Source of the DNA: an uncultured Candidatus Saccharibacteria bacterium
GTDB taxonomy: Bacteria > Patescibacteriota > UBA1384 > XYA2-FULL-43-10 > 1-14-0-10-43-13
DNA length: 32,000 nt
Reading direction: 5' to 3'
Assembly: GCA_964543385.1 (NCBI GenBank)
Contig: CAZIYE010000001.1
Span: forward strand, 330,001 to 362,000
Shown here: piece after piece, positions 4,606 through 27,373 of the stretch
Numbering within the stretch: position 1 is the stretch's first letter
Layout: each line of letters begins with the position of its first letter
The notes under the pieces: generated by a model
Database searches by the model: none
Told to the model about the DNA's origin: nothing
The model's input: only the letters and a program-made list of their open reading frames with translations
Made by a program: the position numbers and the translations under genes

Positions 4606-6662
<2,057 letters not shown>

Positions 6663-25102: not shown

Positions 25103-25471
25103 CTATTTTTTGATTCTTAAGGCCTTTAAAAAACGATTTACTGCTTTTTCTGAACCTTCATGAGCCTTATCGATTTGTTTCTTATGAAACCGCTGCATCT
25201 GTCGCTCAAAAGATTTATATGCAAAAGCAAACGCTCTCATCAATCTATCATCGACTTCACGAACGAATAATTTCTCATGGTTAAATGTTGCCGAAAGCTC
25301 AACAGCCTGGTCTACACCACCTTTTTCTGCACTTGTTTCGTCACGAAGATAAATATCGAGAGTCATCGGTTCATTCTTTAAATATCTCTTCAGTTTCATT
25401 AGCTTTTTCTCTATCAGAGACTTCTGACTCGCAGTAATCACGATGTCCTTGATATGAAATTCTACTTTCAT
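25103..25471 (-). CDS. hpf: ribosome hibernation promoting factor (short HPF/RaiA family)
   Basis: 122 aa. MKVEFHIKDIVITASQKSLIEKKLMKLKRYL fits the sigma-54-modulation/HPF N-terminal pattern. SD AAAGGAGAG before ATG 25471. Confidence 0.8.
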   Translation of the reverse strand: MKVEFHIKDIVITASQKSLIEKKLMKLKRYLKNEPMTLDIYLRDETSAEKGGVDQAVELSATFNHEKLFVREVDDRLMRAFAFAYKSFERQMQRFHKKQIDKAHEGSEKAVNRFLKALRIKK

Positions 25472-25501
25472 ATACTCTCCTTTATTAATTGCCTTAAGAT
25501 T

Positions 25502-25510
25502 ATTCTAACA
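25502..25510 (-). promoter_or_regulatory. putative extended -10 promoter of hpf
   Basis: On the minus strand: TGtTAGAAT (25510..25502), about 24-nt leader containing the SD. Confidence 0.35.
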
Positions 25511-25540
25511 CTCATAGTAAATATTAAAAGAGAACAAATG

Positions 25541-25600
25541 AAAAACCGCCCGGCGTGTACGTAAACGTACTCGTCGAGCGGCGGAACCCCTCCGCGGGGT
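25541..25600 (-). terminator. compound GC-rich hairpins plus T-run ending the GC-rich cassette
   Basis: ACCCC/GGGGT (25586-25600). CCGCC (25546-25550) pairs with GGCGG (25580-25584), enclosing GTACG-TAAA-CGTAC (25557-25570). On the minus strand this is followed by TTTTT (25545..25541). Confidence 0.5.
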
Positions 25601-25604
25601 CAAT

Positions 25605-25934
25605 CTAATCATGGTCGTCGGCCTTGGGGGGCATTGCGGAAATCACGTTCAATACGATAGTGATGGTGACACCAACTATCGCAGTGGCCAGAATCCACAG
25701 AGCACCCTTCCACTCCAGACCTGGAGTGGAACCAGACCTGTACCATGAGTCGATGAATAATTTGCCGACCTGTCCCCCAGAGAAGAGGGCCAGCAAAGTA
25801 CCCACGAGGCGGAAAAAGTTGAACCGAGCCCAACCTCGGCGAACCTCCACCTGCATAGCGAAGATCAGGAAGATCAACGCCGCGACCAGCCACCACAACG
25901 GAGGCCAGGTCAGAACCTGTGAGAATATTACCAT
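25605..25934 (-). CDS. Trp-rich three-TM small membrane protein (109 aa) of foreign base composition, no family recognised
   Basis: Part of ORF 25605..25988. The internal ATG 25934 is preceded by GAGGTGATC (25946..25938), so I prefer it. G/C-ending codon usage is coherent in this frame. Three hydrophobic helices and 7 Trp. Confidence 0.6.
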   Translation of the reverse strand: MVIFSQVLTWPPLWWLVAALIFLIFAMQVEVRRGWARFNFFRLVGTLLALFSGGQVGKLFIDSWYRSGSTPGLEWKGALWILATAIVGVTITIVLNVISAMPPKADDHD

Positions 25935-26071
25935 TACGATCACCTCATAGCATTTTTGCCAGCAAAGTATCCAGCTTTTGCCGGACATTGTTTAATATAC
26001 AATCACTTTTTACTTGTTTTGTCAATACAATTATTAACCACAATGCATATCCGGACTCGTTTATATTAAAG

Positions 26072-26099
26072 AAAAAGACTGCTAGTTGGCAGTCTTTTT
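26072..26099 (-). terminator. rho-independent terminator after serS (symmetric A/T runs, could act in both directions)
   Basis: AAAAAGACTGC (26072-26082), loop TAGTTG, GCAGTCTTTTT (26089-26099). On the minus strand the hairpin is followed by TTTTTCTTT. Confidence 0.75.
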
Positions 26100-26116
26100 C
26101 TTTAATATAGAGTAGT

Positions 26117-27373
26117 TCAACGTTTTATTTCTTTAAACCCAGTATATTTATGTAAAACCTCAGGTATTTTGATCGATCCGTCTTTTTGCTGGCAATTCTC
26201 CAAGATAGCAATCAATGGTCTTTCGGAAAAAGCAGTGCCGTTAAGAGTATGAACGTACTCAATTTTTCCACTCTTATCCTTGAAACGGATATTTAGCCTT
26301 CTTGATTGGAAGTCAGTGCAGTTCGAACAAGAATGAGTCTCACGATATTTGTCCTCGCTAGGCATCCATACTTCGATATCAAACTTCTTAGATGCAGGAG
26401 CGCCTAAGTCACCCGCACAGATATTCACTACCTGATATGGCAAGCCAAGACCTTGCATCAATTTCTCTTCAAGAGAAACAAGGTATTCATGTTCTTTTTC
26501 TGAATCTTCCGGCTTGGTGAAGGAAAACATCTCAGCTTTATTGAACTGGTGAGCTCGTAAAATTCCTCTGACGTCCTTACCATGGCTGCCTGCCTCGCGT
26601 CTAAAACATGTTGAGATACCTACATAACGCAATGGCAAACTTTTTTCCGGCAATATCTCATCCATATGGTATCCGGCAAGAGGCTGTTCGGCAGTACCAG
26701 CTAGATATAAATCATCTTGATTCTTGTAAATTTCATCCTCGCCACCAGGAATATAGCCCGCACCTTCCATAACTTTTCGATTCAACATGACCGGTGGAAT
26801 AATTGGAATAAATCCCTCAGCCACGAGAGTGTCTAATGCGTAACGAAATATAGACAACTCAAGCACAACCATTTCTCTTTTCAAGAAATAAAATCTTGAG
26901 GCTGCTATTTTTGTCGCTCTTTCTGTATCAAATAAATCAAGTTTTTCAGCTAGCTCAATATTATCAAGCGGCTTGAAATCAAATTTATTTGGCTCTCCCC
27001 ATTTTCTATTAGTGGTATTATCCTTATCAGATTCACCGTCGATAACATCAGAAGCAGGTGGATTTGGAATAGCCAACATTACTTTTTTGTATTCTAGATT
27101 AGCTTTTTCTAGTTCTGGTTTGAGTTCCTTAACTTTCTCAGAAATAGTACTTGCTTCCTTGATAGAATCAATCTTCTGCTGACCATGAAACATTGCGATC
27201 TCTTTGGAAAGCTTATTCAGCTCACTCTGATTGTCCTCTAGCTTGGAAATAAGATCACGTCTTCGCTGATCAAGATTAATTGCATCATCAATCAGAGCAG
27301 GCTCAGCCCCTTTTCTGGCTATCCTTTTCTTAATATCATCGGCATTTTCTCTGATGTACTTTATGTCTAGCAT
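26117..27373 (-). CDS. serS: seryl-tRNA synthetase
   Basis: 418 aa, N-terminal coiled-coil arm, class II motif 2 TCFRREAGSHGKDVRGILRAHQF, motif 3 GTAFSERPLIAILEN. Starts 4 nt after the lysS stop. Confidence 0.96.
   Translation of the reverse strand: MLDIKYIRENADDIKKRIARKGAEPALIDDAINLDQRRRDLISKLEDNQSELNKLSKEIAMFHGQQKIDSIKEASTISEKVKELKPELEKANLEYKKVMLAIPNPPASDVIDGESDKDNTTNRKWGEPNKFDFKPLDNIELAEKLDLFDTERATKIAASRFYFLKREMVVLELSIFRYALDTLVAEGFIPIIPPVMLNRKVMEGAGYIPGGEDEIYKNQDDLYLAGTAEQPLAGYHMDEILPEKSLPLRYVGISTCFRREAGSHGKDVRGILRAHQFNKAEMFSFTKPEDSEKEHEYLVSLEEKLMQGLGLPYQVVNICAGDLGAPASKKFDIEVWMPSEDKYRETHSCSNCTDFQSRRLNIRFKDKSGKIEYVHTLNGTAFSERPLIAILENCQQKDGSIKIPEVLHKYTGFKEIKR

Follow-up and report, generated by a model that had tools for sequence, protein, structure and literature searches.

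A GC-rich one-gene cassette between serS and hpf in Patescibacteria as a probable old accessory locus with exchangeable alleles

The 32-kb window analysed here (the whole stretch of 32,000 nucleotides, nt, to whose positions all coordinates refer) carries, between the seryl-tRNA synthetase gene serS and the ribosome hibernation factor gene hpf, a small cassette at ~25536-26116 with one open reading frame (ORF) of 109 codons; all three lie on the minus strand, and the serS-hpf interval is ~645 nt. The original prediction had read this cassette as a compositionally foreign unit, recently acquired from a donor of higher GC content, possibly the host of an epibiotic bacterium. Comparison of related loci points instead to a gene family that is old, tied to one site, dispensable and composed of exchangeable alleles. 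The cassette is probably a native, old accessory element of one Patescibacteria clade, in which selection for a compact mRNA would act on the gene and the product would be an accessory envelope protein under frequency-dependent selection.

The evidence for exchange comes chiefly from one groundwater project, where two alleles of the small protein (P0004 and P0006) were found on the same background. Upstream of the gene, loci L090 and L084 are 99.6% identical over 458 nt, to within 3-5 nt of the ATG, and downstream the 564 nt that L098 and L084 have in common (100% identity) extend from the terminator's 3′ arm to the end of hpf, whereas the ~413 nt between these flanks cannot be aligned save for one 40-nt stretch of 80% identity at the EWKGALWI codons. 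The two alleles share 48% of their amino acids (aa), with an identity of 0.32 at codon position 3. Each was recovered in 2-3 independent assemblies, and both occur together in ERZ909592 (L085, L097) and ERZ27254744 (L086, L098), where the contigs break at the shared motif. Such divergent alleles between near-identical flanks imply exchange by homologous recombination through the serS and hpf sides. The plug-in, horizontal character first attributed to the cassette is thus borne out, in the form of 48%-identical alleles exchanged between 99.6-100% identical flanks in one population.

Comparisons of other carriers point in a similar direction. L087 and L088 have hpf genes that are 88% identical, but their small proteins are only 28% identical and their untranslated regions (UTRs) are of different types; L088 and L092 share a left flank at ~98% identity and have different cassette types. 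In trees of ~100-120-aa proteins with few taxa, the L092 cassette type groups with L087 and L083; the left flank of L092 matches L088. The simplest mechanism would be replacement of the whole cassette, or of its part from ORF to terminator, by homologous recombination in the conserved flanks, which would allow exchange without a recombinase or mobility gene. No integrase, tRNA target or flanking repeats were found at the cassette, whose neighbours are housekeeping genes, and ARAGORN found no tRNA genes in the window. On the anatomy of the locus, which is not an exhaustive criterion, a diversity-generating retroelement was rejected, the differences falling at all codon positions, with indels, and not being adenine-specific, as were an integron cassette and gene conversion from silent copies, there being no integrase or attC-like core and a single copy at each locus.

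Wherever the flanks of a carrier locus are readable, the gene adjoins serS, immediately precedes hpf, or does both, and the carriers L083, L084-L086 and L087-L092 occupy the same locus as far as their short contigs reach. The order in L083 is mreB-mreC-PBP2-greA-lysS-serS-gene-hpf-secA, and the lysS-serS-hpf-secA synteny is found in L003-L008, L083 and L099. The carrier lineages are Patescibacteria with hpf products 60-75% identical to that of the window; hpf relatives at 56-60% identity are labelled Candidatus Berkelbacteria. Among distant alleles the small proteins are 28-48% identical and third positions are saturated (position-3 identity ~0.30). Carriers and non-carriers are interleaved in the hpf tree, and the gene is lacking in L003, the closest relative at species level and sister of the window clade (SerS 89% identical), in which serS and hpf are 17 nt apart. 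The corresponding spacers are 10-20 nt in the non-carriers L005, L007 and L008, 95 nt in L099, 110 nt in L006 and 265 nt in L004. An assembly chimera is excluded, since the identical contig was obtained from 3 samples and the arrangement recurs in independent assemblies of L001 (a close relative with 83% aa identity in the small protein and synteny kept) and L093 (a partial sequence from a Joint Genome Institute, JGI, metagenome scan). A look-up of exact hpf matches, made for further alleles in the window's own population, returned 3 contigs, all with one arrangement.

The cassette is the sole GC island of the window. In windows of 300 nt, GC content peaks at 0.567 (start 25551), 5.4 standard deviations (sd) above the remainder (mean 0.384, sd 0.034, maximum 0.467); the six 60-nt lines from 25561 to 25920, earlier put at 48-60% GC, are indeed elevated, although a recount gives 0.50-0.62. 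GC content at codon position 3 (GC3) in the small ORF is 0.66-0.67 against 0.25-0.40 in all 24 other long ORFs, so that the description of the composition as foreign-looking was accurate. The same protein written with the codon usage of the window would have an expected GC3 of 0.377 and GC of 0.44, compared with the observed 0.67 and 0.545, and therefore about one third of the GC excess is attributable to the amino acids used and the remainder to the choice of codons. Enriched codons are CTG (7 of 14 Leu), TTC (7/8), ATC (5/9), GAC and AAC. Among the G/C-ending codons named in the original prediction, CTG, TTC and ATC hold, whilst GGC does not, being used for only one of nine Gly residues (GGT for six). 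An excess of GC3 over the carrier's own genome is present in most alleles (Table 1), despite saturated synonymous sites among them. High GC and GC3 are a property of the cassette itself, and because synonymous sites have fully turned over between alleles the excess must be maintained and not inherited from a donor.

Table 1. Third-position GC content and predicted mRNA folding of the small ORF in the window and related carriers (z relative to synonymous-codon shuffles)
Locus	GC3, small ORF	GC3, flanking genes	Folding z
Window	0.67		-4.8
L001			-6.2
L083	0.81	0.50	-2.5
L084	0.39	0.38-0.46 (no excess)	-3.5
L087	0.64	about 0.6 (little excess)	-0.7
L088	0.74	about 0.5	-1.9
L090	0.52	0.44	-2.7
L092	0.71	0.46	-2.4

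The family is extremely rare. A word-indexed search of 5.8 billion proteins returned the window's own protein and one relative only, and a full HMMER search of 1.84 billion cluster representatives gave eight matches, one of them a spurious repeat protein; a profile search added no further members. There was no homologue in 185,579 GTDB species genomes or among IMG/VR viral contigs, and a phage origin was rejected on the latter result. Pfam, PHROGs, NCBIfam, PADLOC and PDB sequences gave no match beyond chance (DUF3093, E-value 0.058; FliQ, E-value 0.31), and Foldseek searches of PDB and BFVD gave only matches with E > 0.1, in agreement with the earlier failure to recognise any family. A full-text literature search found nothing on the family or on such a locus in candidate phyla radiation (CPR) bacteria.

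These results bear directly on the possibility that a small membrane-protein gene was recently imported from a donor of higher GC content, for instance the host of an epibiont, and has not yet ameliorated. Such an import would explain why the GC3 is so far above that of the other window genes, why the unit is self-contained and why it is missing from the closest species representative. The homologues, however, are all in related Patescibacteria, those as distant as 60-75% hpf identity carrying them at the same site and usually in GC3-rich form, and none was found elsewhere in the protein representatives, GTDB species genomes or viral contigs searched, which argues against the host or any other outside donor. 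No genome of matching composition carries the gene. With alleles at 28-48% identity, saturated at position 3 and mostly still above the GC3 of their own genomes, the excess is not an un-ameliorated relic, and recent import is very improbable. The original prediction had itself named homologues of raised GC at this locus in relatives as a result that would refute it, and this result was obtained; the unusual object that it described is real, but its history was misread.

The pattern of substitution strongly indicates that the ORF is translated; its predicted product is a membrane protein with three helices, from a very rare family not described before. Between the window and L001 the substitutions at codon positions 3, 1 and 2 number 26, 11 and 9, the sole indel is of 3 nt and in frame, and dN/dS (the ratio of nonsynonymous to synonymous divergence) is 0.18. 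Across seven distant lineages nucleotide identity at codon positions 1, 2 and 3 is 0.485, 0.60 and 0.304, and every invariant residue is encoded by several synonymous codons (for example, Arg by CGC, AGG and CGA). The ORF spans 102-124 aa with the same three hydrophobic helices in all lineages. A further in-frame ATG lies upstream at 25988, but its counterpart in L001 is not in frame, and ATG 25934 is therefore taken as the start; the 127-aa version of the window ORF from 25988 is unsupported and is a gene-call start error. Start calls also need correction elsewhere: that of L083 is probably ATG 7977, behind a GGAGG and 8 codons upstream of the called start, and in the L092 protein P0005 the first ~25 residues are spurious (~554), the true start being a GTG after GAGGAGG.

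The protein agrees with its first description as a product of 109 aa with 7 Trp and three hydrophobic helices, by prediction and sequence, although only 3 of the Trp residues are conserved across the family. AlphaFold, run on an alignment of eight sequences, predicts three long helices at residues 12-32, 35-66 and 73-100 (predicted local distance difference test, pLDDT, 76). Loop 1 has a net charge of +3 and loop 2 is about neutral, and most members likewise have a net positive loop 1 and a nearly neutral loop 2, from which a topology with the N-terminus outside and the C-terminus inside is predicted by the positive-inside rule. The family motifs are AxQxx(V/I/M)R after helix 1, GGxxGK in helix 2, and DxWY...APxxEW(K/R)GALWI at loop 2 and the start of helix 3; loop 2, the predicted outer loop, and helix 3 are best conserved, and helix 2 and the termini least. 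The GC island holds three overlapping ORFs of at least 95 aa. An antisense gene in the 108-aa plus-strand ORF 25624-25950 was rejected, as the alleles show saturation at position 3 of the sense frame, and for the same reason no second reading frame can be under constraint.

The mRNA of the small ORF is predicted to fold more strongly than its protein and codon usage require. Folding z was calculated within each ORF against synonymous-codon shuffles, which preserve both (Table 1); the family mean is about -2.6, compared with a mean of -0.28 (sd 0.90, minimum -2.39) for 88 control segments, each of 330 nt and taken from genes other than the small ORF in the window, L083 and L084 (seven independent lineages against controls, Mann-Whitney p = 5e-5). 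With dinucleotide shuffles of 25535-25945, from the Shine-Dalgarno (SD) sequence to past the terminator and thus including its hairpins, z was -5.5 for the sense strand and -4.35 for the antisense strand. The sense strand is predicted to fold considerably more stably than the antisense (e.g., -142 vs. -107 kcal/mol), and its z is the more extreme in 7/8 lineages, as would be expected if G-U pairs in the transcript matter. Position-3 GC is 0.75 at paired and 0.48 at unpaired sites of the minimum-free-energy fold, a difference that is suggestive only, since folding programs are themselves biased towards G-C pairs. The predicted folding energy is -182 kcal/mol in the window and L001 alike, and their predicted pairs include 2-3 compensatory changes and 11-12 one-sided changes that keep pairing. 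Synonymous sites are also less diverged. In comparisons of the window with L001 or L093, the proportion of synonymous differences (pS) is 0.34-0.39 for the small ORF, about half the values of its neighbours hpf (0.63-0.69) and secA (0.73), with Fisher p = 6e-4 and 3e-3. The low pS could be due to synonymous constraint, or the cassette could have passed among these lineages more recently.

An ordinary, fast-drifting membrane protein could in principle show much of this, if its GC3 were raised by translational selection or GC-biased gene conversion and the folding were a by-product. C-ending codons are typically preferred in highly expressed genes of AT-rich bacteria, and here the two-fold codons TTC, AAC, GAC and TAC, along with ATC, are preferred; the promoter and SD are close to consensus, and the locus clearly recombines. 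Composition, though, cannot produce the folding excess, because the shuffles keep codon usage. The G-ending codons CTG, CAG, GAG and AAG and the CGN codons are enriched too, the alleles are too divergent for the heteroduplex that biased conversion needs, and AT-rich spacers of the same hot spot show no rise in GC, all of which makes such a by-product unlikely.

A structured non-coding RNA, akin to the raiA motif, with an ORF that is accidental for want of stop codons, would be suggested by the folding z values of -5.5 and -4.8, by the overlapping ORFs of the island and by its position upstream of hpf/raiA, GC islands in AT-rich genomes being a classic signature of structured RNA. Rfam covariance models, however, gave 0 matches at gathering score in the whole window and, at E <= 10, nothing inside 25541-25934 but a 29-nt chance match; weak OrzO-P, STnc370 and mir matches all fall on the serS terminator, far under their gathering scores. 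Known RNAs (tmRNA, RNase P, 6S, SRP and raiA motif) were rejected, neither Rfam nor ARAGORN finding any in the island. The three-base periodicity, the in-frame indel, the varied synonymous codons at conserved residues and the retention of a 102-124-aa, three-helix ORF in all lineages speak for a protein, covariation is confined to the terminator and 3′-UTR hairpins, and the ORF fold is not conserved across distant alleles. A conserved RNA without protein-level conservation, which the original prediction had named as a reading that would overturn its own, is not what is seen, and an RNA gene with a chance ORF is the least credible of the alternatives, to the point of being barely tenable.

The cassette appears to form a monocistronic unit of serS terminator, sigma-70 promoter, 5′-UTR hairpin, SD, ORF and double-hairpin terminator (Table 2), an organisation established from the position of sequence elements. 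The proposal of a self-contained unit with its own predicted promoter, SD and terminators therefore stands, down to the clean serS terminator, the strong SD 3 nt from the ATG, and the two GC hairpins and T5 run after the stop codon. A detail in need of revision is the promoter, of which the -35 TTGACA is retained and the -10 TATATT (25999-25994, 20-nt spacing) is replaced by the more likely TTGTAT, a better fit, with 17-nt spacing and an upstream TG, to which the close relative aligns. TTGAC(A/T)-17-TAnnAT occurs 88-97 nt upstream of the ORF start in L001, L084, L087, L088, L090 and L092, and TTGACA-17-TAAAAC in L083. L001 and L088 have a hairpin at the matching 5′-UTR position with changed bases, as read from the sequence and carrying no statistics, and a GGAGG-type SD precedes the ORF in all homologues. 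The serS terminator is missing in the cassette-free L003, L005, L007, L008 and L099. In the 15-pair terminator hairpin at the right end, L093 changes 2 pairs on both sides and 2 more on one side, all still paired, and the 3′ arm GCCGGGCGGTTTTT is also common to L084 and L090.

Table 2. Predicted and annotated features of the serS-hpf interval
Feature	Positions	Strand	Description
serS (seryl-tRNA synthetase), left anchor	26117..27373	-	Pfam Seryl_tRNA_N + tRNA-synt_2b
serS terminator hairpin, cassette left end	26055..26116	-	inverted repeat, 28-nt arms, core AAAAAGACTGC...GCAGTCTTTTT
Predicted cassette promoter	25994..26025	-	-35 TTGACA (26025-26020), 17-nt spacer, TG-extended -10 TTGTAT (26002-25997)
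5′-UTR hairpin	25958..25984	-	read from sequence, CCGGCAAAAG...CUUUGCUGG
Shine-Dalgarno sequence	25938..25946	-	GAGGTGATC, 3 nt upstream of ATG 25934
109-aa ORF, predicted three-helix membrane protein	25605..25934	-	GC 0.545, GC3 0.67
Palindrome, 11+11 nt	25708..25731	-	TTCCACTCCAG/CTGGAGTGGAA, over S-T-P-G-L-E-W-K codons; local RNA hairpin
First 3′-UTR hairpin	25585..25601	-	GACCCC-GCGGA-GGGGUU, 6 pairs, invariant in 3 sequences
Intrinsic terminator, cassette right end	25541..25584	-	nested hairpin 25546-25584 + T5 run 25541-25545
hpf promoter and leader, outside cassette	25472..25540	-	TG-extended -10 TGTTAGAAT, SD AAGGAGAG
hpf (ribosome hibernation factor, S30AE family), right anchor	25103..25471	-	Pfam PF02482, E 1.9e-8

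To the right of the cassette, the hpf promoter of the window, TTCTCTTTTAA...TGTTAGAAT, recurs in the non-carrier L099, which places the right edge of the window cassette at ~25536. The spacer 25472-25540 is 92.5% identical to that of L001, compared with 45-70% in other or neutral spacers of the same pair; the hpf promoter and leader are either strongly constrained or were transferred together with the cassette. Within the window, the region's best promoter-like match, TTGATA-16-TATACT on the plus strand (25449-25476; 10/12), lies antisense over the start of hpf and points into the cassette; it is made of conserved hpf codons and is weaker in L001 (TATGCT).

Under the favoured reading of the cassette as a native, old accessory element, its G/C-ending codons would be kept by selection for a compact and stable mRNA, with a long half-life and/or limited access of ribosomes, and the protein might, more tentatively, be an accessory envelope factor under frequency-dependent selection. 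Because ancient alleles co-exist and the gene is present in some genomes and absent from others, an immunity- or exclusion-type protein acting against a membrane-targeting toxin or phage would fit best, although this is the weakest step of the argument.

Several observations weigh against this reading. The two groundwater alleles could belong to two very close strains and not to one recombining population. The exposed loop is conserved and the helices are variable, which is the reverse of the simplest expectation for a diversifying surface, and no partner gene (toxin or phage protein) is known for the cassette. Two alleles, L084 and L087, have little or no GC3 excess, and folding z in L087 is only -0.7. 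A family-wide conserved fold within the ORF was rejected, since minimum-free-energy pairs of each lineage, transferred through the codon alignment, hold at 0.46-0.52 across distant alleles, near the 0.36-0.48 of shifted controls, and RNAalifold retains only pairs from invariant Pro and Gly codon bases; in the comparison of the window with L001, 13-15 predicted pairs survive a change and 14-16 are lost. With no common fold, the signal must be one of general compactness and not of a specific RNA architecture, and selection of this kind is harder to prove. The low synonymous divergence (dS) could also mean that the cassette passed between the window, L001 and L093 lineages after the split of their genomes.

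A related but rather less likely proposal is that the cassette is a self/non-self or protection module of CPR bacteria, consisting of a single membrane protein with ancient alleles at one hot spot and a GC-rich, compact mRNA that is itself functional. The message might then be very long-lived and translated on exit from hpf-mediated hibernation, or might be a dual-function RNA; if true, this would be a rare case of persistent selection on synonymous sites that mimics a foreign composition. More doubtful again is a selfish addiction module resembling type I toxins, in which a membrane-damaging protein would be encoded by a long-lived, folded and poorly translated mRNA. Its attraction lies in the small hydrophobic product, the heavily structured mRNA (as predicted) with a 5′-UTR hairpin and structured 3′ end, and the stand-alone unit with its patchy presence among close relatives and its allele turnover. 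Type I toxins, however, are usually under 60 aa with one helix, and a 109-aa protein with three helices and a conserved loop motif is far larger than those known. A consensus scan, which could miss one, found no antisense promoter-like site common to eight cassettes; the gene is single-copy and always at one site, and a strong SD and consensus promoter favour expression over silencing.

Further observations at the locus concern what precedes and surrounds the cassette. In L088 (~120-200) and L092 (~350-455) the cassette is preceded by the terminator of another gene, which is followed by ~100 nt left over from the 3′ end of serS (...TGFKEIKR*), the L092 remnant containing an internal stop; serS has therefore been rearranged away with the link between cassette and hpf kept. 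The L004 spacer (6254-6388) holds a G-rich tandem array of ~6.5 copies of a 21-nt unit, GTAGAGTGGGGAACGTAGAAC, with a sub-period GGAACGT (7 nt), followed by a terminator, and may be a second kind of insert at this hot spot or a scar in it; a similar GTAGAA-rich sequence directly follows the serS stop in L084. The serS terminator of L084 and L090 (CGCCGCTCCGG...CCGGGGCGGTTTTTATTTG, with a CCCCGG...CGGGGGG hairpin before it; L084 ~1340-1385) is much like the 3′ end of the window cassette at 25536-25584 (CCGCCGCTCGACG...GCCGGGCGGTTTTTCATTTG, preceded by GACCCC...GGGGTT), and may be the 3′ remnant of an earlier, upstream copy of the cassette. L083 (8354-8400), L087 (470-516) and L092 (897-938) have in common a conserved 3′-UTR stem-loop, in which an apical hairpin (loop AAGGA/AAGA) is nested and after which comes AACAC; 9/15 of its pairs are altered on both sides with pairing kept, and the window allele has a different first hairpin (25585-25601) at this position. 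Outside the cassette, window LysS (27378-29297) has 639 aa with a C-terminal DUF2000, and relatives in the same position have 457-504 aa and lack DUF2000, so this is a lineage-specific domain fusion.

Repeats within and near the ORF appear to be of lesser importance. The palindrome reported originally as 20 nt is present, and is longer, at 11+11 nt; 11/11 of its pairs remain possible in L093 (2 G-U) and 10/11 in L001 (2 G-U), as judged by eye, and the G-U pairs are usable on the sense strand only. As a conserved DNA-level feature it was rejected, not being conserved as DNA and being pairable only as sense RNA in two close relatives. The 9-nt direct repeat CCAGACCTG also exists, but its interpretation as a DNA-level feature fails, the copies not being kept in L001 or L093. 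A 16-nt near-repeat, GCCAGCAAAGTATCCA / GCCAGCAAAGTACCCA, links the 5′-UTR hairpin (25958-25973) and codons 44-49 (25789-25804); it is weaker in L001 and is probably a chance product. Both repeats were rejected as functional DNA elements, neither being kept in L001 or L093. Two terminator-like hairpins lie within the ORF on the minus strand, at 25823-25840 and 25878-25900. The first of these, GCCGAG-GTTGGG-CTCGGT followed by TCAACTTTTT, is a possible internal attenuator; L001 keeps the hairpin with its T-run interrupted.

The cassette offers a counter-example to the use of GC or codon-usage deviation as proof of recent foreign origin, since the anomaly here is old, recurrent and bound to one gene. 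It adds an undescribed, extremely rare family of small membrane proteins to CPR bacteria, a group with a poorly understood envelope and host-interaction biology, and the presence of two ancient alleles in one natural population marks the gene as a target of strong selection. The excess folding, sense-strand specificity and halved synonymous divergence make it a testable case of selection on a whole mRNA in a reduced genome. In addition, where it is present the cassette would separate hpf from serS transcriptionally, so that the regulation of ribosome hibernation may differ between genomes with and without it.

Polymorphic accessory loci between core genes, and small membrane proteins with structured mRNAs, are both already known kinds of element. 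New are the protein family, its restriction to one site in one clade, the ancient alleles in identical backgrounds, and the persistent, apparently selected anomaly of GC3 and folding. The first of these kinds includes the pneumococcal pherotype and bacteriocin-immunity loci, the agr specificity groups of staphylococci and defence hot spots, all exchanged by recombination between core genes. The cassette resembles them in its sharp borders, near-identical flanks and very divergent insert, in the ancient alleles within one population, in its presence and absence among close relatives and in its atypical composition. It differs in being one tiny gene with no partner (toxin, peptide, kinase or nuclease), in its CPR hosts, in belonging to no known family and in having alleles that are all homologous and not unrelated systems.

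Comparison with recently transferred ORFan islets is similarly divided, as these share the outlying GC and codon usage, the own regulatory signals and the absence from a sister genome, whereas the anomaly of the cassette persists through saturated divergence at a fixed locus in one clade, and the analysis turned up neither an outside donor nor a mobility gene, a tRNA target or a flanking repeat. The island is like the raiA motif RNA in being GC-rich, strongly folding and directly upstream of hpf/raiA in an AT-rich genome, but has no covariance-model match and is an ORF with a coding pattern whose fold is not shared across alleles. Type I toxins such as hok, tisB, fst and txpA are likewise small hydrophobic membrane proteins encoded by stand-alone units with structured, probably stable mRNAs (in the cassette, by prediction) and a patchy distribution. 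The cassette protein, at 102-124 aa with three helices and a conserved loop motif, is unlike them, as are its single copy at one fixed site and the failure of the consensus promoter scan to find an antisense RNA signal in the cassettes; a search that covered the PADLOC models of anti-phage defence, and not a library of toxin-antitoxin systems, gave no match. Class I holins (lambda S type) and the E1-type immunity proteins of pore-forming colicins match the cassette protein in size (~100-115 aa) and in having three transmembrane helices. No phage, endolysin or colicin gene lies nearby, the context being one of housekeeping genes in all loci, and the protein has no PHROG, Pfam or BFVD match and is absent from viral contigs, which sets it apart from both groups. 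It further departs from class I holins in having no conserved dual start and an acidic, not basic, C-terminus, whilst sharing with them an N-out/C-in topology (by prediction only), and it is polymorphic, as the colicin immunity proteins are.

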